Shown: positions 4,650-61,177 of the stretch, one piece after another
Layout: each line of letters begins with the position of its first letter
How positions within the stretch are numbered: position 1 is the stretch's first letter
IMG/VR virus record: IMGVR_UViG_3300027977_000009
Strand: one strand, 5' to 3'
Length of the DNA stretch: 64,000 nucleotides
Source of the DNA: a virus
Translations under genes and position numbers: made by a program
Notes under the pieces: model-generated
Seen by the model: the letters and a program-made list of their open reading frames with translations, nothing else
Databases searched by the model: none
Told to the model about the DNA's origin: nothing

Positions 4650-5267
4650 TTAGGATGATTTCTTTTCTAATTTGTAGGTTTTACCAATGACATTGGGAAA
4701 CATCAGATGAATGTAGGTTAACATAGCTGGGTCGTTATAATCAATATAGTAATGATCATAAATCCAAATGTATTTGTATCCCCAACTGCTTAGGGGATAC
4801 AAACATCGAAGAAAAGGATGATTCGGGCGTAACCCATCAGTTCGTTCTAGATATTCTACAAACGCTGGCCTAAACTCAGCTTCTACCCTTTTTGTCTTAA
4901 GATAGGACCTAAACTTAGCAGGAGGAGTATTCTTAAATAGTTTTACGCCATGTGTCACAATAGCTTCAGTTATGGGGCCGGCATTAGCCAGTAATTGAAA
5001 TTGCTCAACCAGTGCTAAATCGTTGCTAAAGAAGGTGATACGGTCCCCTTCTAGCCTGAACTTATTATTCTCTCGATGCAAAGCAAGGAATATACTGATT
5101 TTTTCCCGATCAGTATATGATGTTGTATGCATCTCTGGCAGACTGATGAGGTTTCCCAGCTGTATACTTTCTTGACCTCTGGGTGTCCGTACACTAACTC
5201 TATACTTAAATTTATTGTAGTAAAGGATAGTCCGATCTTCAGCTTTGAATTTCAATGATGCCGTCAT
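4650..5267 (-). CDS. Hypothetical protein
   Basis: ORF 4650-5318; more likely start MTASLK at 5267. Confidence 0.55.
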   Translation of the reverse strand: MTASLKFKAEDRTILYYNKFKYRVSVRTPRGQESIQLGNLISLPEMHTTSYTDREKISIFLALHRENNKFRLEGDRITFFSNDLALVEQFQLLANAGPITEAIVTHGVKLFKNTPPAKFRSYLKTKRVEAEFRPAFVEYLERTDGLRPNHPFLRCLYPLSSWGYKYIWIYDHYYIDYNDPAMLTYIHLMFPNVIGKTYKLEKKSS

Positions 5268-6447
5268 GGCCAATCCTTGCGTTTTGCTTTTGAGTAATTT
5301 GGAAAACAATCTCGTCATTTTCTAAAACTGCCATGATACTTGAATTCGCAATGCGCTCAAAGAGAATCTTCTTTGAGAGGGGAACGCGAATCAGTTCATC
5401 GATCTTGCGAGCGAGCGGGCGGGCTCCCATCTTACTATCGTATCCTTTAGCAGCTAGGTAGTCAACTACCGATTCGCTCAAATTAAGAGTGATATTGTGC
5501 TTTTCGAGCAAGGGCTTCTTGACCTCGTCGAGGAACTTGATAACGATCTTCTTGATAGCAAGCGTATCCAACTTGTTGAACTTACAAATCATATCAAGAC
5601 GATTGCGGAACTCAGGTTTGAAGAACTGCTTGAGTGCTTTCTCGTCTTCATCGGTTTTTTCTAACATACCGAAGCCAATGTTATTACGCTCATTGTCTGC
5701 TGAACCAAGATTAGAGGTCATAATAATAATAGTGTTCTTGCATGAGACTTCCTTACCGTTAGAACCGGTGATGCGTCCCTCATCCAAAATCTGCAAGAAG
5801 ATGTTGAAGATATCGGGGTGAGCCTTTTCAACTTCGTCGAATAGCATAATCGAATGAGGGTTCTTGCTCAAGTCTGAAATCAAACGTCCACCCTGCACCT
5901 GTGAATCGCTGAAGCCTACATATCCCGGGGGAGGACCAATCAAGCCACTTACGCTGTGCTTCTCTCCGTATTCCGACATGTCATACTTGAGAAGCGGCAT
6001 CTCCAAATTCTTAGAGAGCAGCTTAGCAAGCTCAGTATTATGATGAATAAAACCATTTGAAGTTTGATACAGGTGAGAATCCGATACTACACTAAGATCA
6101 TAAAATAACGTATCGTCAATTGGAACAACATCCAGAACAGAAACCTCGGACCCATTTTGCTTGCAAATTATATCTCCAGTCTGCAATGAATCAAAATACA
6201 GACATTCCTCACCATCGTGAATTAGGTGTTTATCGGCAGCAGAAATCGTGTCTCCTGAATCAAAGGTTATTTTTCTACCCGTAGTTTCTTTGGTAATAGC
6301 AGCATTCACTTCTACCCAATTGTCATTCTCATCTTTGATTTGAATTTCGGAGTTTAAAAATTGCTCATGTTCAGGTACGAATGTGGTCTTTTCATAAAGA
6401 CTAATGAGGTTGAAGAGTTTTGCGATAGGTAGAGTGATTTCTTTCAT
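5239..6447 (-). CDS. clpA: Split-intein C-fragment (137 aa) fused to the C-terminal half of a ClpA-like ATPase (NBD2)
   Basis: Intein block B (SAADKH), block F (YDLSV) and block G (IHHN|T), then TELAK, DMSEY, PPGYVG, LFDEVEKAH, IGF loop, PEFRNRLD, GARPL. Confidence 0.9.
   Translation of the reverse strand: MKEITLPIAKLFNLISLYEKTTFVPEHEQFLNSEIQIKDENDNWVEVNAAITKETTGRKITFDSGDTISAADKHLIHDGEECLYFDSLQTGDIICKQNGSEVSVLDVVPIDDTLFYDLSVVSDSHLYQTSNGFIHHNTELAKLLSKNLEMPLLKYDMSEYGEKHSVSGLIGPPPGYVGFSDSQVQGGRLISDLSKNPHSIMLFDEVEKAHPDIFNIFLQILDEGRITGSNGKEVSCKNTIIIMTSNLGSADNERNNIGFGMLEKTDEDEKALKQFFKPEFRNRLDMICKFNKLDTLAIKKIVIKFLDEVKKPLLEKHNITLNLSESVVDYLAAKGYDSKMGARPLARKIDELIRVPLSKKILFERIANSSIMAVLENDEIVFQITQKQNARIGHDGIIEIQS
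6037..6447 (-). mobile_element. IntC of the ClpA split intein
   Basis: Ends His-Asn followed by Thr+1, the Walker A threonine. Confidence 0.9.
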
Positions 6448-6490
6448 ATAATTCCCTTTGTGTTAGTGACAGTGTATTTAATATAATACT

Positions 6491-6519
6491 ATAATACTGT
6501 GTTTTTCATAAAAAGTAAA
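6491..6519 (-). promoter_or_regulatory. Sigma70-like promoter for the clpA C-half
   Basis: TTTACT-17 nt-TATTAT upstream of the SD and ATG at 6447. Confidence 0.5.
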
Positions 6520-6573
6520 GCTGTTTGTTGATTTTCTTGCCCAAATGATAAATAAACATAGGAGCAACATGTT

Positions 6574-7656
6574 ATGGCAAGACGTTTAGAAACAAGACTC
6601 GAAGGCAGCAAGCCCTTTAAGGACAGAATCGGAAGACCATTAATTTCCGTTGAAATTGAAAGATTATATGAATTTCATCATAGAGTAGGCTACACTCCGG
6701 ACAGGATACATGCGATAGTCCAATTTATTTTATTAGGATACGATGATTGGAGTAGTATTTGGAATAAATTAAAGACCTTGCACAACGGTACATTAGAATA
6801 CCAAACTCTACTTTACGGAGATGTTATGGGCAAAACCAAATATTTGGAACTTAACAAGAAAAAAACTAAAGGATTTGACCATTCGTCTGATGCTCAAAGA
6901 GAGAAGGGAAAAAAATCAGCCAAGCTATCAAAAGGAAATAAAGAATGGAGTGTGCGCGGGTTGGGGTATTGGATCAAAAAAGGATACACAAAAGACGAAT
7001 CATTAGAGAAAGTGAAGGCAATACAAATAACTAATTGCTTAGATAGATACATAAAAAAATACGGTATTGATGAGGGGACCCAAAAGTTTAATGATAGGAA
7101 GAATACTTGGAAAAAAACGATGAACTCTTCGATTATTGGCAAAAAAAGAAGTCTGGGACTATGGAGATACGTAGAAAGATACGGTGAAGCTGAAGGAGAG
7201 AAAAAATATATCGAAATGCGTATTAAAAGAAATTCTAAATGCAGTATAGGAAGAGCGTCTGCCGAGTCGCTAGATGCACTTTCCCCAATCATACGTATCT
7301 TAGATCAAAATGGTATTAATTACTATATAGGAATAGAAGGAAATAAAGAATGGTTCATATTCAATAAAAAAGAAAAAAAGATGTTTTTCTATGATTTAAC
7401 TATACCTTCATTGGGGATAATAGTAGAATATCACGGTGAGGGATTTCATCCTAATCCAAACTGGGAAGAGAAGATGCTAACTGAGTGGAGACAAGTTAGA
7501 ACAGGAAAAGGCGCTAAAGAAGTGATGGACTATACTAAAATGAAAAATCTTACTGCAATAGAAAACAGATGGACCGTATTTGAAATCTTCTCGTCAGAGG
7601 TTTCAAATACGGTCCCCAGGATAAAAGACGTTATACTGAAATCAATCCGTTCTTAA
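6574..7656 (+). CDS. Putative free-standing homing endonuclease (Vsr/PD-(D/E)xK-like C-terminal domain) inside the split clpA
   Basis: Repeated basic Y..KYG..EG modules; C-terminal FYDLTIPSLGIIVEYHGEGFHPNP; own GATAAATA (6547-6554) and AGGAG SD. Confidence 0.7.
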   Translation: MARRLETRLEGSKPFKDRIGRPLISVEIERLYEFHHRVGYTPDRIHAIVQFILLGYDDWSSIWNKLKTLHNGTLEYQTLLYGDVMGKTKYLELNKKKTKGFDHSSDAQREKGKKSAKLSKGNKEWSVRGLGYWIKKGYTKDESLEKVKAIQITNCLDRYIKKYGIDEGTQKFNDRKNTWKKTMNSSIIGKKRSLGLWRYVERYGEAEGEKKYIEMRIKRNSKCSIGRASAESLDALSPIIRILDQNGINYYIGIEGNKEWFIFNKKEKKMFFYDLTIPSLGIIVEYHGEGFHPNPNWEEKMLTEWRQVRTGKGAKEVMDYTKMKNLTAIENRWTVFEIFSSEVSNTVPRIKDVILKSIRS

Positions 7657-9187
7657 CAGCAAAATTGTACATATCATCGGTAATTTTTACAGTAACTTCT
7701 TGCTCACCCGCCAAACACTTACCCGTACCTGTAGGTCCCAAGAACAAGAAACTTGCGATGGGCTTCTTATCATTGCCGATACCAGCGAATGATACATAAA
7801 CCCGTTCAAGAACTTTATCTACTGTCTCGTCTTGACCATAAAGCTTATCCTTGACGTTTGTGTCAAGCTGATGAATACGATCAAGGTTGTCGCCGGACAT
7901 TTTGTCCGCAGGGACCCCAGTAAACTTTTCAACTTGATCATAGATCAACTGTTTGGTGATGACTGCATTCTTGTTTTCAAGCACCCGCTGCTTTGCACAA
8001 GCTGCATCTAGCAAGTCAATCGACTTGTCGGGGTTCTTGCGGTCGTGAATATAACGATCTGCACTTTCGACTGCTGCTTCGATTGCCTCTTCGCTAATAC
8101 TAACGTTATGGAAATCATTCAGACGGGTAGAAAGTCCACGCAGGATTCGAACAGTAGAATCATGTGAAGGTTCATCGATAGAAACACGATAGAATCGGCG
8201 CATCAACGCTCGATCCTTTTCGAATGATTCGTAGTATTCTTCCCAAGTCGTAGATGCGATTACCTTAAGGTTGCCCTTAGTGATAGCGGGCTTGATCATG
8301 TTAGAAAAGTCAACAGCTCCAGAAGTCGAGCCGCCGGCACCCTGCATAGTATGTGCTTCGTCGATGAATAGAATAGCCTTCTTCTTGACAGTAAGTGCCT
8401 GCAGTACGTGCTTTACCTTTTCTTCGAAGTCACCTCGATATTTAGATCCAGCAAGCAACGTGCCGATTTCAAGCGAGTAAAGTTCATGGTCTAGCAAGAA
8501 GTCTGGAACTTCTTCATTGACGATTGCATTTGCGATACCCTCAGCGATAGCAGTCTTCCCGACGCCAGGGTCTCCCACCATCAATACGTTAGCTTTGAAT
8601 CGCTTTGCCAAAACGTTGATGATGTCATCGATCTCTTTAGTGCGACCGATCACTGGTTCTAGTTTTTCATTTCGTGCAAGCTGAGTTAGATTGATAGTAT
8701 ATTCGTCAAGAATCTCGTCAGCCTGGACATCACTGATGCCGCTAGCATACTCGCCGCCGCGATAGTTCTTTTGCCAATGAGCGAGAAACTCTGCCTTACC
8801 GATGCCGTACTTGAGCAGGAAGTAATGTCCATGCGAATTGCCTTCACTAGCGATACTCATGAACAGATCAATCGTAGCCATCTGTCGGCGGCCAGTGAAC
8901 AAGACCTGAGTAACAGAACGGTTCATGACGCGTTCGAGTGTATTAGTACGCTTTGGCTGGCTGGCTGGGTCTTTAGATTCAATCGCGTGCAGGCCGTTAA
9001 GATACGCTTCGACTTCAGTGATTAGCATATCTGTGTCGGCATTAAAGCTGTTCAAACACTTCCTAAAAGGAGAGTGAGTAATCAATGCAAGAAGCAAATG
9101 TTCTACTGTGCAATATTCATGGTTGCGTTGCTTAGCAGCTTCAATTGCTCGTTCAATGATATTTTCAATTTCGGGCGAGGTCTGAAT
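7631..9187 (-). CDS. clpA: N-terminal half of the ClpA-like ATPase (N-domain, NBD1, start of NBD2) fused to a 28-aa split-intein N-fragment; probable ATT start
   Basis: HEYCTVEHLLLAL, PVIGR, GDPGVGKT, LFIDEAH, DRALMRRF, PDKSIDLLD, then GPTGTGK|CLAGEQEV...stop. Confidence 0.9.
   Translation of the reverse strand: MQTSPEIENIIERAIEAAKQRNHEYCTVEHLLLALITHSPFRKCLNSFNADTDMLITEVEAYLNGLHAIESKDPASQPKRTNTLERVMNRSVTQVLFTGRRQMATIDLFMSIASEGNSHGHYFLLKYGIGKAEFLAHWQKNYRGGEYASGISDVQADEILDEYTINLTQLARNEKLEPVIGRTKEIDDIINVLAKRFKANVLMVGDPGVGKTAIAEGIANAIVNEEVPDFLLDHELYSLEIGTLLAGSKYRGDFEEKVKHVLQALTVKKKAILFIDEAHTMQGAGGSTSGAVDFSNMIKPAITKGNLKVIASTTWEEYYESFEKDRALMRRFYRVSIDEPSHDSTVRILRGLSTRLNDFHNVSISEEAIEAAVESADRYIHDRKNPDKSIDLLDAACAKQRVLENKNAVITKQLIYDQVEKFTGVPADKMSGDNLDRIHQLDTNVKDKLYGQDETVDKVLERVYVSFAGIGNDKKPIASFLFLGPTGTGKCLAGEQEVTVKITDDMYNFAVKNGLISV
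7634..7717 (-). mobile_element. IntN of the ClpA split intein (28 aa)
   Basis: Block A CLAGEQEVTV immediately after the Walker A lysine. Confidence 0.88.
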
Positions 9188-9207
9188 GGTACTTTTCCTT
9201 TACAAAA

Positions 9208-10011
9208 CTATTTATTTTTACTACGATTGATACTATCAATTATATCATTGTCTATATTATCAGGGATGTATGGCTTGATCAATAGTATTTGGTCACCCAT
9301 CGTGCCATCACGAGAGGGCATACCATAACCAGGTACCCTAATAACCTGAGCAGGTTGTGTATTGGGTTTAATTACAACCTCTATTGTTTTTCCATTAATG
9401 GTTTGAATTGGAACTTTAGCGCCCACAATCAAGTCTAGTACAGAGATAGTCAGTTGCGAATATAGATCACTGCCTTTCCGTTCATATCTATGATCAGGAG
9501 TGATGGCGAACTCAACAATTAGTGTTACATTGTTGATGATATTATCATAGCGCATCGTGTCACCGTTGTCAACACCAGGAGGAATTTTTATGTTGATGAC
9601 TTTCACCCCTTGGGGGGTACTAAGCTGTATTATACTCTCGGTTCCAGTATATGCATCAACCAATGATACACCAAGACGAGTGCGCATCACTTGTTGCTGC
9701 TGTGCGAATGGGTTAGGTCTGTTTCCAAAAATCTGTCCGAACAAATTTTCTAGATCAAACGCATTACCATATACTGAGAATTCTTCTCCCCCACTACCGA
9801 ATGGATTATGTTGCTGTCTAGATTGAGGGCTGTCGTATCGTAAACGCTTATCGGTATCACTTAATATTTCGTATGCATTACTGATTTCTTGAAACTTATT
9901 AATGTCGCCGCCGCGATCAGGATGATGCTGCATCGCAAGTTTACGAAATGCACTTTTAATTTCTTCCTGAGTAGCGGTGCGAGATACCCCGAGAGTAGTG
10001 TAATGATCCAT
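9208..10011 (-). CDS. dnaJ: DnaJ/CbpA-like co-chaperone
   Basis: J-domain with HPD, G/F region and C-terminal DnaJ domain; no zinc finger. Confidence 0.9.
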   Translation of the reverse strand: MDHYTTLGVSRTATQEEIKSAFRKLAMQHHPDRGGDINKFQEISNAYEILSDTDKRLRYDSPQSRQQHNPFGSGGEEFSVYGNAFDLENLFGQIFGNRPNPFAQQQQVMRTRLGVSLVDAYTGTESIIQLSTPQGVKVINIKIPPGVDNGDTMRYDNIINNVTLIVEFAITPDHRYERKGSDLYSQLTISVLDLIVGAKVPIQTINGKTIEVVIKPNTQPAQVIRVPGYGMPSRDGTMGDQILLIKPYIPDNIDNDIIDSINRSKNK

Positions 10012-56178: not shown

Positions 56179-56805
56179 TTAATCTTCCAATCCTATTCCC
56201 GCTAGTTCTCTCATTCGTCTGGTGTTAAAATAACTTCTAACTTCTGCTAACATTTCAGTAGATTCCGATAGAACATATTGATATTTGCGGAAATCAGTAT
56301 CATCGTGGGCAAAGTATGTTTTAAGATCATCTGCGTTTTTTATAGTAGTAAACGATTGCCCTGGATTAGTTCTGTCAAATACTGAAACAGAATGTCCCAT
56401 ATCAACTAACCTAGACCAGAGTTTAAACGCGTCCTCGCTGAGGTCAATATCACTTATTAGTTTAATAGATCGGTTGCTATCGTTGAGTATTGCATCGTAT
56501 AAATCCGAAGCGTAAGGTGGTCCGATAAAATCAGGCAGTTTACCTAAAGCCGATACTACCAATCCTTGAGGTCTGATATCTAACACAGCGCCTAACAGAA
56601 TATTTCCGTCTTTTTCATACCAATAATACACCACTTGCTGTCCTTGAATCTTTTTAAGGCTATTTCCCAAATCAATTACAGGAGATCCAGATTTGATTCT
56701 ATCTCTTATACTATACTTAACAGTAGCATACATAGGAAAAGTACCTAATCCCCGTGGCATTTCTGCCAACCAAGTCTCATTAAAGTCAGTTCTGTTAGTG
56801 GTCAT
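56179..56805 (-). CDS. Hypothetical protein
   Basis: 208-aa ORF overlapping the nrdA stop; ends RMRELAGI. Confidence 0.55.
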   Translation of the reverse strand: MTTNRTDFNETWLAEMPRGLGTFPMYATVKYSIRDRIKSGSPVIDLGNSLKKIQGQQVVYYWYEKDGNILLGAVLDIRPQGLVVSALGKLPDFIGPPYASDLYDAILNDSNRSIKLISDIDLSEDAFKLWSRLVDMGHSVSVFDRTNPGQSFTTIKNADDLKTYFAHDDTDFRKYQYVLSESTEMLAEVRSYFNTRRMRELAGIGLED

Positions 56806-58637
56806 AACTTACACGAGCCACACTCAGATTCGTCATCAAAGTCGATAGGATCTAACATGACAGGCATGTCGTCGGCTTCTTCTTTAGAACCCTGCTTATT
56901 AATCAGTGAGTAATAAAGTGTCTTTAAACCATAGTAGTGTGCAAGCATCAAGTTCTTTGCGATCAGGGTAGTAGGTACCTTACGATCAGGGAAGTGTGCT
57001 GGATTGTAGAACGTGTCAGTAGAGATTGATTGATCCATAAATGCTGCCAGTACCGCAGAGGTCTTTAGATAGCCGATGCAGTCAGTTTGCTCCCACATTA
57101 ACTGATAGTTCTTACGTACCTTTGCGTTATGATACTCGGGAACGACTTGAACGAAGGCGCCGGCTTTAGATTCCTTGATAGTAATCAAGTTCATGGGCAA
57201 TGCGATACCATTCGTAGAGTTGATGACAACCGATGATGATTCAACAGGAGCAATTGCCCCTATGGTAGCATTACGAACCCCATGAAGTTTCATCTCTTGT
57301 CTGAGTGATTCCCAGTCAAGTTCAGGGTTAAAATTAGCTAATTCATTAGAGCCTTTTGCCCTGAGTTCCCAAGGGAAAATTCCCTGACCATATCGAGTCT
57401 TGTCGCTATCTAAACATTTGCCACGTTCTTTGGCGAGTTCAATATTAGCTTCCATCAAATAATAGGTCTGTCGCTCTGCCCAACGTTTAACTTCCTGTAG
57501 AGCATCTGCTTCACCATACTTCATACCGCGTTTGGCATGCCAGTATGCGAGATTGGTAACGCCGATACCAATTGGTCTAATCTCATCGTTTGATAGCTTG
57601 CTCTGAATTGACAAGAAATCTTGATAGTCTAGGATATTATTCAAACTACGTAATAGCAGACGACATGCTTTACGCATTTCTTCTGGATTCTTAAATGCTC
57701 CCCAATTCATGCTCCCGAGGGTACACAAACTTATTCGGCCGGCCGGGTCATCTAGTCTTTTGAACGGTTTCGTAGGCAACAGTATCTCAACGCAAAGATT
57801 AGACTGATAGATCGTATGATACTCAGGATCAAAAGGACCTTGATTCATGACGTTATCAATGAAGACAAGATAGATACGACCGGTGTCAGTGCGTTCTTTG
57901 AGGATACCGCCCTTGAATACTTCTTCTGCACTCATCGTCTTCTTGCGAAGGTCTTTGCGCTTCTCGTATTTTACATAGAGTTCTTCGAATCTTGTTGTGT
58001 TCTGATAAAAGGCTTCATACAGATCAGGAACTTCGTTAGGATCAAAGAAGGTAATGTTTTGCTTATTCTTAAAACGTCGCCAGAAGAATGCAGATAATAC
58101 AACACCATAGTCCATATGACGGACACGAGTCTCTTCTGTACCTTGATTATTCTTTAATACGATTAGGTCATCAAATTGATAGTGCCATATGGGATAGAAA
58201 ATGGTAGCACTGGCATTCCTAATTCCACCCTGACTGTTATGGGTCAACACCATTGGTCCTTCATTGCTAGCTGACGCAAAAAAGGTATGTGTATCTTCTA
58301 CCGTAATATCAATGTAGGTTTCATCGTTATTTTGTTCGAAGTTTGCATCCATTAGACGTGTGACTTCAAAGTCAGTTAACACATCGTCGTTGTGGGTAAG
58401 TTCGTTCGGTTTCTTTTGATAAAAGTTTTCGGATTCATCCGAACATATAATAGGATGGTTCACTGAACAATTCAGAACTGTTCCGTTTTTAAATTCTAAA
58501 CGAGTTTGGTCTTGTCTTCCGACACGCGTATTCCATTTGTCGGTAACAGTCTTGAACACAACCTCGCCATGTTCGTTTTTGGTTTTGATTTTCATTCCGA
58601 TCGTCAAGTCTTTAATTTGTATTTTTTTAGTTTTCAT
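56802..58637 (-). CDS. nrdA: Split-intein C-fragment (134 aa) fused to the C-terminal part of ribonucleotide reductase alpha
   Basis: Block B CSVNHP, block F YIDITV, block G LTHN|S, then SQGGIRNASAT, SNLCVEI, LCTLG, KTLYY and C-terminal CGSC. Confidence 0.93.
   Translation of the reverse strand: MKTKKIQIKDLTIGMKIKTKNEHGEVVFKTVTDKWNTRVGRQDQTRLEFKNGTVLNCSVNHPIICSDESENFYQKKPNELTHNDDVLTDFEVTRLMDANFEQNNDETYIDITVEDTHTFFASASNEGPMVLTHNSQGGIRNASATIFYPIWHYQFDDLIVLKNNQGTEETRVRHMDYGVVLSAFFWRRFKNKQNITFFDPNEVPDLYEAFYQNTTRFEELYVKYEKRKDLRKKTMSAEEVFKGGILKERTDTGRIYLVFIDNVMNQGPFDPEYHTIYQSNLCVEILLPTKPFKRLDDPAGRISLCTLGSMNWGAFKNPEEMRKACRLLLRSLNNILDYQDFLSIQSKLSNDEIRPIGIGVTNLAYWHAKRGMKYGEADALQEVKRWAERQTYYLMEANIELAKERGKCLDSDKTRYGQGIFPWELRAKGSNELANFNPELDWESLRQEMKLHGVRNATIGAIAPVESSSVVINSTNGIALPMNLITIKESKAGAFVQVVPEYHNAKVRKNYQLMWEQTDCIGYLKTSAVLAAFMDQSISTDTFYNPAHFPDRKVPTTLIAKNLMLAHYYGLKTLYYSLINKQGSKEEADDMPVMLDPIDFDDESECGSCKL
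58236..58637 (-). mobile_element. IntC of the NrdA split intein
   Basis: Ends His-Asn followed by Ser+1. Confidence 0.92.
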
Positions 58638-60249
58638 CGTTCTTCACCGTCTTCCATACATATACGTTACTACCGCAATCCCAAAACCTTGTATATCCGT
58701 GATTTTTCATGTTTTCCCATTCACTTAAGGTACTATCATATGTAAGTAGTATTGATTGCAGTTTGTGTTTTTGATATTTTGTCCTATGTTCTAACCGACC
58801 ATTTACGATGTACCAATAGTTTGGATCACTGGTGTGACTTAGTGTCATTCCAATTTTGGTATAAACTTGACCGGTGTTCCACCTCAAGTCTGCATAACTA
58901 ATTATCGAGTTAGGAGTATGGGTAGTAATAAAATATGAAAATAGCTTAGATGCTCCACCGACAACTGTACTTTTCGATGCGTAGCGTATCATTTCATATT
59001 CATAATTAGTGTTGTATCTAGCCTTAGAAAAAGACATCACTGCTACAATCTCATTTTGGTATTCTAAAGCGAGTCGTACAGATGCCGAAGCCGCTCCTTG
59101 GATGTGCCATTTGTTCATAAATTCAGTATAAACAGGGGAACTAACCGAAACGATCTTGCATTTTCTTGCAAAGATTTTATCTTGTTTTCCGAGTTTGGCA
59201 AGTATTCGATGTTTTACTATTTCAAATTTTTCAGATAATTCATAGTCCGTGATGTGCATAAGTTGAACATCTTTGATTGCTGCCTGTTTGTTTTTGTTGA
59301 TATGATAAAATCGGTCTTTTATGTATGTTTCGCTGTGCCAAAACAGTCCGTCTATTTCTATGCCGATTTTATAATCGGGTAGATATAGGTCTATCTCTTT
59401 TCCCGATAGAATAGTTCTATCGCTTTGAATACATTCGACATCGTTCTCCTTTAGGAATTGCAGTAATTTTAACTCAAGGCTAGATACTATAATATTCGGG
59501 CGGGCTATGTTATGTTTTTTGTAATAGTTGAGAACAGTTGACCATGCTACTCCTAAGGTTTCTGATAGTGTGGTTGACGGGACGCTTTTATTTTCATGTA
59601 ACCAAACTGGGTCATCAAGTTTATCATAAATATCCGGATCTTTTCGGTTAGCGAGTGCAATGTCTCTAGAAAACGATAGCATCAATGCAGTTGGTACTCC
59701 GTAACGTTTAATGTTGGTTTCTGTAATTTTGTTACGGATAGTTTGGTTTGTTACTGGATTCACATATCCGTATTTCTCTAAATTGGTCTCACTGCGTTTT
59801 TTATTTGCTTCGTCAGTTGTGCCAGGACTCGTTGTCCCATATTTCAACAAATAGTCTTGCTTCAATTGAGCAACATATAGTGGATCTTGTCGGCGATATT
59901 CTACTCCGTAGCGTTCAATATTTGTTGCTTTTTTCTTGTTTTTGATACGTTCGTTTCTATATCCAGTATCTCCAAAATTATGCTCTAATGTGTTGTACTT
60001 TTTCTCTCTTGTATCTTGGCAGACAGACGCGCATTTTTTAGAACAAAAAACCGTATAACCTTTCCTGAATGATAAAAAAGTTGACGGAGAATCACATTCT
60101 TTGCATAACTTAGGTCCAAATAGCCCGTGATATGCCTGATATGCGACTTCTTTTGGTATGCTGTATTTTTCAAGGGCTCTAGCATTTAATGCTCCATTTT
60201 TTGCCAACAAGTGATCCTCAACAAATTTCTTATCAATCATCGTTGTCAT
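58627..60249 (-). CDS. Putative homing endonuclease inside the split nrdA (zinc ribbon, TN.E.YG repeats, Vsr-like nuclease, GNAT/Mom-like C-terminal domain)
   Basis: CKEC...FCSKKC; TNIERYGV, TNLEKYGY, TNIKRYGV; EIDLYLPDYKIGIEIDGLFWHS; GGASKL...ISYADLRW. Confidence 0.75.
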   Translation of the reverse strand: MTTMIDKKFVEDHLLAKNGALNARALEKYSIPKEVAYQAYHGLFGPKLCKECDSPSTFLSFRKGYTVFCSKKCASVCQDTREKKYNTLEHNFGDTGYRNERIKNKKKATNIERYGVEYRRQDPLYVAQLKQDYLLKYGTTSPGTTDEANKKRSETNLEKYGYVNPVTNQTIRNKITETNIKRYGVPTALMLSFSRDIALANRKDPDIYDKLDDPVWLHENKSVPSTTLSETLGVAWSTVLNYYKKHNIARPNIIVSSLELKLLQFLKENDVECIQSDRTILSGKEIDLYLPDYKIGIEIDGLFWHSETYIKDRFYHINKNKQAAIKDVQLMHITDYELSEKFEIVKHRILAKLGKQDKIFARKCKIVSVSSPVYTEFMNKWHIQGAASASVRLALEYQNEIVAVMSFSKARYNTNYEYEMIRYASKSTVVGGASKLFSYFITTHTPNSIISYADLRWNTGQVYTKIGMTLSHTSDPNYWYIVNGRLEHRTKYQKHKLQSILLTYDSTLSEWENMKNHGYTRFWDCGSNVYVWKTVKNDEN

Positions 60250-61177
60250 CCTCGTCTAGAACTTCTACCCAAGTATCTGGTGTCACGCAACAGCTACGCA
60301 GATCACCGAACCACTTCTTTAGGAATGGAATCATTCCTGTGTGCATGATTTCACCACCTCGAATAGGCGAACCGAGGGGACGAAGCCTGCCGATTTCTAA
60401 GCCAATACCAGCACGTTTACTAGCATATTTGGCCATCATCTCACCTGACGCAAAGATGCTATCAAGGTCATCGTCACTGCGAATAAGAACACAACTTGAA
60501 AACTGCTTAGTTGGTGTGCCCAATCCAGCAAGAACAGGTGTCGCTAATGTGAATAGTCCGTCGGATGCAGCATGATAGTAGTCCTTGATGTACTTCATTC
60601 TTGCATTGTTGGGTTCTTCTCTGTGGAATACAGTCGCAGCAGCGACCATGTATCTTACTTGGGGTGTTTCGTAAATCTCTTTAGTAGCACGATTTCGGAC
60701 TAGATATTTTTCAACTAGTTGTTCTACTGCTGCATATGCATATGTTTCGTCTTTGGCATGATCAATGATATCATTCATTTTGTTCCAGTCATCTTCTGAA
60801 TACCATTCAAGAAGTTCCGGAGTGTAAAGACCTGTAGCTATATTCTTTTTGACGATCTCATATAGATGAGGAGGAGTATACTGACCGTAAACTGACTTCC
60901 TGAGCATAGAAAGTCTTTGTTTTCCCGCTACATATTGATAGTTAGTATTACCGATATCTGGGTTCGATTCAACGTCAATCAAGTCTACGATGGCACGAAG
61001 AGTAAGTTCATCAATTTCTTGCGTAGTGATGCCGTCATAAAATTGAGGAGAAGCCTTGATTTCTATCATAGACTGGCTCACATCTGTGATGCCTTTACAT
61101 ATTTTCGTGATTTGCGCTTGCCATTTTTCTAGTGACAGTGGCTCTGTTTTCCCATTTCTCTTTATAATACTAATCAT
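60233..61177 (-). CDS. nrdA: N-terminal part of ribonucleotide reductase alpha (ATP cone) fused to the 18-aa intein N-fragment
   Basis: IIKRNG ATP cone, YETPQ, LATPV, QFSSCVL, RAGIG, DLRSC|CVTPDT. Confidence 0.93.
   Translation of the reverse strand: MISIIKRNGKTEPLSLEKWQAQITKICKGITDVSQSMIEIKASPQFYDGITTQEIDELTLRAIVDLIDVESNPDIGNTNYQYVAGKQRLSMLRKSVYGQYTPPHLYEIVKKNIATGLYTPELLEWYSEDDWNKMNDIIDHAKDETYAYAAVEQLVEKYLVRNRATKEIYETPQVRYMVAAATVFHREEPNNARMKYIKDYYHAASDGLFTLATPVLAGLGTPTKQFSSCVLIRSDDDLDSIFASGEMMAKYASKRAGIGLEIGRLRPLGSPIRGGEIMHTGMIPFLKKWFGDLRSCCVTPDTWVEVLDEDDNDD
60236..60289 (-). mobile_element. IntN of the NrdA split intein (18 aa)
   Basis: CVTPDTWVEV block A followed by acidic tail LDEDDNDD and stop. 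Confidence 0.9.

Follow-up and report, generated by a model that had tools for sequence, protein, structure and literature searches.

Introduction

Genes that are kept as two open reading frames (ORFs), with a split intein at the break and a free-standing, often Vsr-like endonuclease between the halves, were catalogued by Dassa, London, Stoddard, Schueler-Furman and Pietrokovski (2009, PMC2677866) at 26 loci, mainly from phages, with all three ORFs on one strand. A Clp protein was not among the hosts, which were gp41, DnaE, NrdA/J, IMPDH, ligase and terminase; the N-terminal intein fragment (IntN) measured 88-105 amino acids (aa) in all but the terminase intein, half of those fractured genes had a Vsr-like endonuclease, and one locus was recorded without an endonuclease. 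The atypically split inteins GOS-TerL/AceL-TerL, Cat (6dsl), VidaL (6vgv) and PolB16 OarG (8cpn) are divided between blocks A and B and combine a short IntN of 15-25 aa with a long C-terminal fragment (IntC) that carries blocks B, F and G and has the Hint fold. The EDxHD (Vsr-like) homing endonucleases were characterised by Taylor et al., and their prototype, I-Bth0305I, resides in a group I intron of recA (PMC3239194, PDB 3r3p). The present analysis concerns a 64,000-nucleotide (nt) stretch of viral DNA (IMG/VR record IMGVR_UViG_3300027977_000009, the whole of which is called the window), in which the clpA gene of an uncultured giant lake phage is encoded as two minus-strand genes with a nuclease gene reversed between them. 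This is very probably a clpA gene fractured by a naturally split class-1 intein at the Walker A motif of the second nucleotide-binding domain (NBD2), with trans-splicing to a 755-aa unfoldase and with a homing nuclease encoded between the halves.

This kind of element is already known; the Clp host protein, the inverted nuclease gene with its tail-to-tail overlap and the uncharacterised intein lineage set this case apart from the described ones. Two ORFs, a split intein at the break and an intervening free-standing endonuclease are shared with the fractured genes of Dassa et al., whereas the single strand common to those loci is not, the nuclease gene lying here on the plus strand and clpA on the minus strand; the common strand is read as a descriptive trait of the earlier set rather than as its definition. 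An inverted nuclease gene overlapping tail to tail is present in the window and in the IMG/VR loci L173, L081, L082 and L150, and the IntN, at 28 aa, contrasts with the mostly 88-105 aa of the earlier set, as does the Clp host. Likeness to the atypically split inteins extends to the split between blocks A and B, the short IntN and the long IntC with its blocks B, F and G and Hint fold; the differences are a Cys1/Thr+1 junction, a His-His-Asn (HHN) end, a block B of the form AxxH and another host protein, all of them known here from sequence and models.

Position of the break in clpA

The insert occupies 1681 nt (6037-7717) and interrupts clpA in frame between K490 and the T that follows it in the NBD2 Walker A motif. 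It contains the 28-aa IntN, the 137-aa IntC and, on the opposite strand, the 360-aa nuclease gene. The features of the locus are:

5239-6036, minus strand: clpA C-extein, 265 aa from Thr+1, with the remainder of NBD2, its IGF loop and the D2-small domain
6037-6447, minus strand: IntC, 137 aa, carrying His74 in block B, Asp117 and His125 in block F, and His-His-Asn137 in block G
6448-6573, no strand assigned: divergent intergenic region with promoter-like and ribosome-binding sites facing the nuclease ATG and the IntC ATG
6496-7626, no strand assigned: segment of 1131 nt missing from a nuclease-less allele, consisting of the nuclease leader and its ORF except the last 10 codons
6574-7656, plus strand: free-standing homing-endonuclease-like gene, 360 aa, with N-terminal helical repeats and a Vsr/EDxHD-type domain at residues 227-360
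7634-7717, minus strand: IntN, 28 aa, with Cys1 first (block A), absent from the relatives that cover the site; its stop codon is at 7633-7631
7718-9187, minus strand: clpA N-extein, 490 aa, with the N-domain, NBD1 and NBD2 as far as the Walker A Lys

A first-pass annotation, made from the nucleotide sequence alone, had described the upstream ORF as ending in GPTGTGK plus 28 residues and a separate ORF as carrying 137 residues ahead of TELAK. Both descriptions hold: the N ORF (9187-7631, minus strand) reaches the P-loop GPTGTGK and continues for 28 residues, the first of them Cys, to its stop, and the C ORF (6447-5239, minus strand) opens with 137 extra residues that end in His-His-Asn before TELAK. 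The further proposal that removal of these 28 and 137 residues restores the Walker A motif was borne out by the NCBIfam ClpA model TIGR02639, in which the N-extein matches positions 2-500 (E 4.6e-146) and the C-extein positions 501-730 (E 5.7e-83), abutting at 500|501, and by 79 relatives covering the site, in which the gene is unbroken at K|T. In the alignment with PHROG 4871 the N half stops at profile position 510 and the C half begins at 510.

Together the exteins amount to 755 aa and cover positions 2-730 of the 734 in TIGR02639; the summed score of 767 bits lies below the equivalog cut-off of 993, and the spliced product would be ClpA-like, not a certified equivalog. The traits of the ClpA class are all present, namely an N-domain, two AAA+ modules, no ClpB middle domain and, in the C-extein, the IGF tripeptide as ClpP-docking loop, as noted in the first pass; the C-extein also matches Pfam AAA_2 and ClpB_D2-small. 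The upper boundary given for the locus, 9187, is an ATT start codon (9187-9185) with AAGGA 8 nt upstream, and no ATG, GTG or TTG lies between it and the upstream in-frame stop. At the same start in IMG/VR relatives, likewise preceded by an AAGGA box, the codon is TTG in 29, ATG in 26, GTG in 5 and ATT in 5.

An atypically split intein of an uncharacterised lineage

A phmmer search with the 137-aa IntC against 1.84 billion representatives recovered a family of 146 clusters, in most of which the match begins at residue 1 of the protein. The family ends in His-Asn in 138 of 140 members, followed at position +1 by T (111), S (27) or C (1), and the catalytic positions are strongly conserved (His74 in 60/60, Asp117 in 50/60, His125 in 56/60, His136 and Asn137 in 59/60, with His135 near-invariant). 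The nucleophile positions for splicing are occupied in the window by Cys1 directly after GK and by Thr+1 directly after HHN. The intein/Hint profile search that had been recommended succeeded at the level of the family, since 12 of 61 members match Pfam Intein_splicing (PF14890, best 9e-13), and failed for the window IntC itself, which has no direct match. Contiguous-intein members of the family carry, directly after the P-loop GK, an N-terminal piece homologous to the 28 residues of the window, and the window IntN aligns with the IntN pieces of eight other split loci (L081, L082, L083, L150 and L163-165 among them). With the split positioned between blocks A and B, leaving 28 aa in IntN and 137 aa with blocks B, F and G in IntC, the element is an atypically split class-1 intein, and the lineage marked by the AxxH and HHN signatures is uncharacterised.

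The predicted structures agree with this assignment. The IntC was modelled with AlphaFold2 (AF2) at a predicted local distance difference test score (pLDDT) of 94.2, and each of the 44 PDB entries that Foldseek matched to it at E <= 0.001 was an intein or Hint/BIL domain, the best being gp41-1 (4e-6) and the others including the atypically split VidaL, Cat and PolB16 OarG. Template-modelling (TM) scores were 0.72 against Cat (target-normalised) and 0.67 against VidaL (query-normalised), and by this model the IntC has a Hint fold. A joint prediction of the two fragments, also suggested at the outset, paired an IntN construct of 38 aa with an IntC construct of 147 aa at an interface score (ipSAE, interaction prediction score from aligned errors) of 0.78, as against 0.02 for the best control. 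Among solved complexes 58 of 80 attained the mark set for this score, as did 2 of 110 mismatched pairs; these counts are only a rough benchmark here because alignments of our own were used. Runs agreed in at least 86% of contacts, with partner pLDDT of at least 73. Residues 8-36 of the IntN construct contact IntC residues 1-11, 33-38, 68-75, 110-118 and 128-137, and the IntN strand is modelled as pairing with residues 3-8 and 35-37 of IntC and extends to blocks B, F and G. The score measures likeness to solved split-intein complexes and the pass may stem from that; binding of this particular pair is a prediction of the model.

Empty sites, selection and alternative explanations

A scan of IMG/VR yielded 80 relatives at 70-98% protein identity, 79 of which cover the insertion site, while the contig of the remaining one (L021) ends within the gene. 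Neither the insert nor the nuclease gene is present in any of the 80, and in each of the 79 the C part begins on the base right after the N part, leaving the gene unbroken. These genes supply the comparison with intein-less alleles that had been envisaged, the closest being the uninterrupted clpA of L001 (98% amino-acid and 90-93% nucleotide identity). Because the DNA of L001 aligns up to 7719 and resumes at 6027, the insert is delimited to 6037-7717. The junction differs from L001 at 5 positions in 18 nt, all synonymous, a density equalled in 35 of 2248 windows of that comparison (1.6%); this cluster is suggestive, if weakly so, of target-site divergence or co-conversion. Measured against L001, the N-extein has a ratio of nonsynonymous to synonymous substitution rates (dN/dS) of 0.025 and the C-extein one of 0.055, values that point to strong purifying selection on clpA as measured against this intein-less relative.

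Several observations weigh against the reading of the locus as a trans-spliced clpA. The Thr of the block B motif TxxH is Ala in the window IntC, as it is in 50 of 60 family members (AxxH). The window IntC lacks a direct match in Pfam or NCBIfam, and its best sequence match in the PDB, to the consensus atypical intein CatC, reaches only E 0.2; the sequence relation to the atypically split inteins is marginal, at 18-20% identity. The intein allele is rare in its clade, and because it is carried by none of the 80 close relatives the dN/dS values alone would be compatible with a very recent invasion.

The altered block B, and the indirect nature of the case for splicing, would suit an arrangement in which the intein pieces are inactive or merely hold the halves together, giving a non-covalent two-chain ClpA of the kind reported for the ribonucleotide reductase of Aeromonas phage Aeh1 (PMC3045599), the product of a gene fractured by a mobile element, which assembles non-covalently by way of domains that the element left behind. 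Such an arrangement is improbable for this locus, since the break between GK and T would leave 165 foreign residues in the middle of the Walker A motif if unspliced, while Cys1, His74, Asp117, His136, Asn137 and Thr+1 have all been kept and are near-invariant across 60 members, among which Ala at block B is the norm and not a local lesion. With the P-loop itself interrupted, two unspliced chains would probably lack a functional D2 ATPase. The absence of the insert from the 80 closest relatives bears more on a different possibility, that a selfish element invaded clpA recently and inactivated it, leaving both halves to decay; the invasion may be recent, and dN/dS against an intein-less relative gives no date. 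Decay is nevertheless very unlikely, given that no damage is seen in either ORF, in the intein residues or in the ribosome-binding sites, that two intein-bearing alleles (that of the window and one described below) differ in the N-extein by synonymous changes only, and that the same architecture with intact frames recurs across clpA lineages only 42-75% identical.

The initial proposal, in which a ClpA-type protein is interrupted at its NBD2 Walker A by a split intein of short IntN and long IntC, agrees with the exact break, the predicted Hint fold and the fragment-pairing model, from which we infer the splicing itself. In the trans-splicing mechanism favoured here, the separately translated IntN would dock as a beta-strand and short helix on the IntC, completing the Hint fold, and splicing would proceed through Cys1, the block B His, the block F Asp and His, the terminal His-His-Asn and Thr+1. 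Splicing would yield a ClpA-type unfoldase of 755 aa in which the P-loop, GPTGTGK-TELAK, is whole again. The nuclease would presumably cut element-free alleles, the repair of which would spread the element.

A Vsr-like nuclease in the opposite orientation

The 360-aa nuclease-like ORF reported between the halves on the opposite strand was recovered at 6574-7656 (plus strand), and its 3' end overlaps that of the N ORF, tail to tail, by 26 nt. In an AF2 model of pLDDT 87, residues 227-360 superpose on Vsr (1cw0_A; Z 9.0, root-mean-square deviation (rmsd) 3.6 A, 110 residues aligned) and on I-Bth0305I (3r3p_A; Z 8.8, rmsd 3.0 A, 94 of 97), and the comparison with 1vsr gave Z 8.7. By its modelled fold the protein is a putative Vsr-like (EDxHD) homing endonuclease. 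It has no direct match in Pfam, NCBIfam or PDB sequence searches, and its 43 homologues, of about equal length, are neither named nor assigned a Pfam domain; because such direct searches gave no significant match, the identity of both the intein and the nuclease rests on the family search and the folds. Core residues E231, D274, E285, H287, H292 and K324 are invariant and may include counterparts of the EDxHD motif. The D274-to-H292 spacing of 18 equals that from D51 to H69 in Vsr.

Like I-Bth0305I, the protein combines a C-terminal catalytic domain with an N-terminal helical region presumed to bind DNA and belongs to a mobile intervening sequence in a phage gene, whereas the two have no detectable sequence similarity and the setting there is an intron, here the space between intein halves. 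Residues 79-219 (window 6574-7250) hold three helical repeats of the form YG-x3-G-x3-Y/F-x-basic, near-invariant among 31 homologues, which are presumably a DNA-binding module. Among the more distant homologues, the nuclease gene usually has downstream of it, on the same strand, an IntC-type ORF.

Assembly and allelic states

The first-pass annotation had asked for confirmation of the assembly from reads, and sequencing runs and their contigs support it. Ten lake-water sequencing runs flagged as possible sources contain all sampled words of the locus, and two further runs, not flagged as its source, contain 86-90%; one run gave an 11-kb contig at depth 36 that is identical to the window over 5000-9400, and contigs of the two runs not flagged, X11 and X12, span both junctions (6036/6037 and 7717/7718) with zero differences. 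The locus is not an assembly artefact. As the record is a metagenomic contig that CheckV places at 18% completeness, a chimera of an intein-bearing fragment with the clpA of another phage had to be considered, but the bridging contigs, together with the identical nuclease protein on record from 11 contigs, leave that explanation scarcely conceivable.

A run from a different lake study, X13, contains a 791-nt contig in which 6495 is joined directly to 7627. This allele keeps the IntN with its stop codon and, after a spacer of 52 nt, the start of IntC but is without the nuclease gene, of which it retains the TATAAT box and the last 10 codons with the stop; its N-extein differs from that of the window at five sites, all synonymous third positions. 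Lake phages present three allelic states: an empty clpA site, the split intein alone, and the split intein with the nuclease. The skipped segment begins directly behind the TATAAT box and stops 30 nt short of the nuclease stop codon; the -10 box and the ORF end used by the cassette as seen here are thus found in the nuclease-less allele too. A possible, though tentative, explanation is that the nuclease gene forms another layer, mobile in its own right, that lies within the spacer of an already split intein, in which case the cassette would borrow its -10 box and ORF end from the intein locus.

An intein of this family also fractures a PhoH-like gene, in which a same-strand nuclease cassette is present in L163 and L164 and absent from L165 and L166. 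Comparison of L164:4889-5986 with L165:5967-5986 places the cassette exactly in the gap from the IntN stop to the IntC start, and the two loci are a presence/absence pair parallel to the clpA nuclease alleles.

Expression signals

The two halves of clpA are certainly translated separately, because a stop codon is followed by a new ATG behind the Shine-Dalgarno-like AAGGGA. The first-pass annotation had gone further and spoken of separate transcription, which is not supported by a promoter and terminator scan, where promoter-like sites were no commoner than in shuffled sequence. None of the runs listed for the locus is on record as RNA, the RNA label of X13 being a guess. Within the divergent intergenic region the plus strand has a sigma-70-like GTGACA-18-TATAAT (6466-6495, 11/12 matches) with AGGAG ahead of the nuclease ATG, and the minus strand has weaker promoter-like sites ahead of the IntC ATG, from which transcription of the C half may start. 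The -10 box and ribosome-binding region of the nuclease leader are common to L081, and only these are shared. A structured leader RNA for the nuclease, such as has been reported for some fractured genes, was considered and rejected, its fold not being significant (z 0.33).

Recurrence in other phages and other hosts

At least four further phage lineages have the same fractured clpA, in one case as three pieces, and the combination of site, split and inverted nuclease is found in the IMG/VR loci L173, L081/L174, L175, L082/L176 and L150. Four groups of loci compare with the window as follows:

L173: clpA identity to the window 75% in the N part and 71% in the C part; nuclease inverted, 52% identical
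L081/L174 and L175: clpA identity to the window 51-57%; nuclease inverted, 47%
L082/L176: clpA identity to the window 43-52%; nuclease inverted, 43%
L083: clpA identity to the window 42-50%; no nuclease, the two ORFs being 30 nt apart

L150 (L150:1740-7188) has its clpA broken into three, the Walker A motifs of NBD1 and NBD2 each carrying a split intein of this family together with an inverted nuclease gene. The first nuclease gene of L150 looks broken into two ORFs. The tail-to-tail overlap of the nuclease and IntN ORFs amounts to 8-26 nt in the five inverted cases measured. A contiguous form is represented by P0003, a ClpA of 919 aa in which the same site in NBD2 is occupied by an intein of this family; its IntC is 52% identical, and its IntN part of 20 aa leads without a gap to a Met corresponding to the one at which IntC starts in the split forms. 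By sequence matching, the split-intein clpA arrangement is widespread among IMG/VR phage loci.

Clp-type exteins were found in 17 of the 146 family clusters, with some others ClpX-like, and the Pfam tallies of the family exteins also include RecA, PhoH, helicase, DnaB-type and ABC proteins, all of them P-loop proteins. On the count of 17 in 146, Clp ATPases are a frequent host within this intein family and not a one-off. The earlier remark that no Clp ATPase was known as a split-intein host stands for the literature, as no natural Clp ATPase intein was found in open papers, where the only related case was an intein in chloroplast ClpP; for the sequence data it does not stand.

Neighbouring genes and a second fractured gene in the window

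A DnaJ-type co-chaperone gene with a J domain and DnaJ_C lies directly upstream of clpA (9208-10011, minus strand); its synteny in relatives is suggestive of a chaperone cluster in these phages. No ClpP was found in the 63.7-kb record, an uninformative result because the record is an 18% fragment.

A class I ribonucleotide reductase gene, nrdA, is also fractured in the window (56802-61177, minus strand), and consists of:

56802-58637, minus strand: nrdA C half, with an IntC of about 143 aa that ends THN|S and has a weak Pfam Intein_splicing match (E 1.1e-4)
58627-60249, same strand: nuclease-like ORF, 540 aa, with KYG/RYG repeats like those of the clpA-locus nuclease
60233-61177, minus strand: nrdA N half, ending with an 18-aa IntN

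Significance

These results add an Hsp100/Clp unfoldase, a proteostasis motor, to the natural hosts of split inteins, which are mostly enzymes of replication, nucleotide metabolism and packaging. Separately translated halves might time the assembly of ClpA during infection. The intein family is also a source of natural short-IntN split inteins with a Cys1/Thr+1 junction, in which an IntN of 24-28 residues is feasible by peptide synthesis. If the nuclease gene is indeed a nested second layer, a gain-and-loss cycle of a two-layer selfish element would be traceable in nature. The empty-site, nuclease-less, nuclease-bearing, three-piece and contiguous forms of clpA together constitute a natural series on the splitting of inteins and the gain and loss of their endonucleases.

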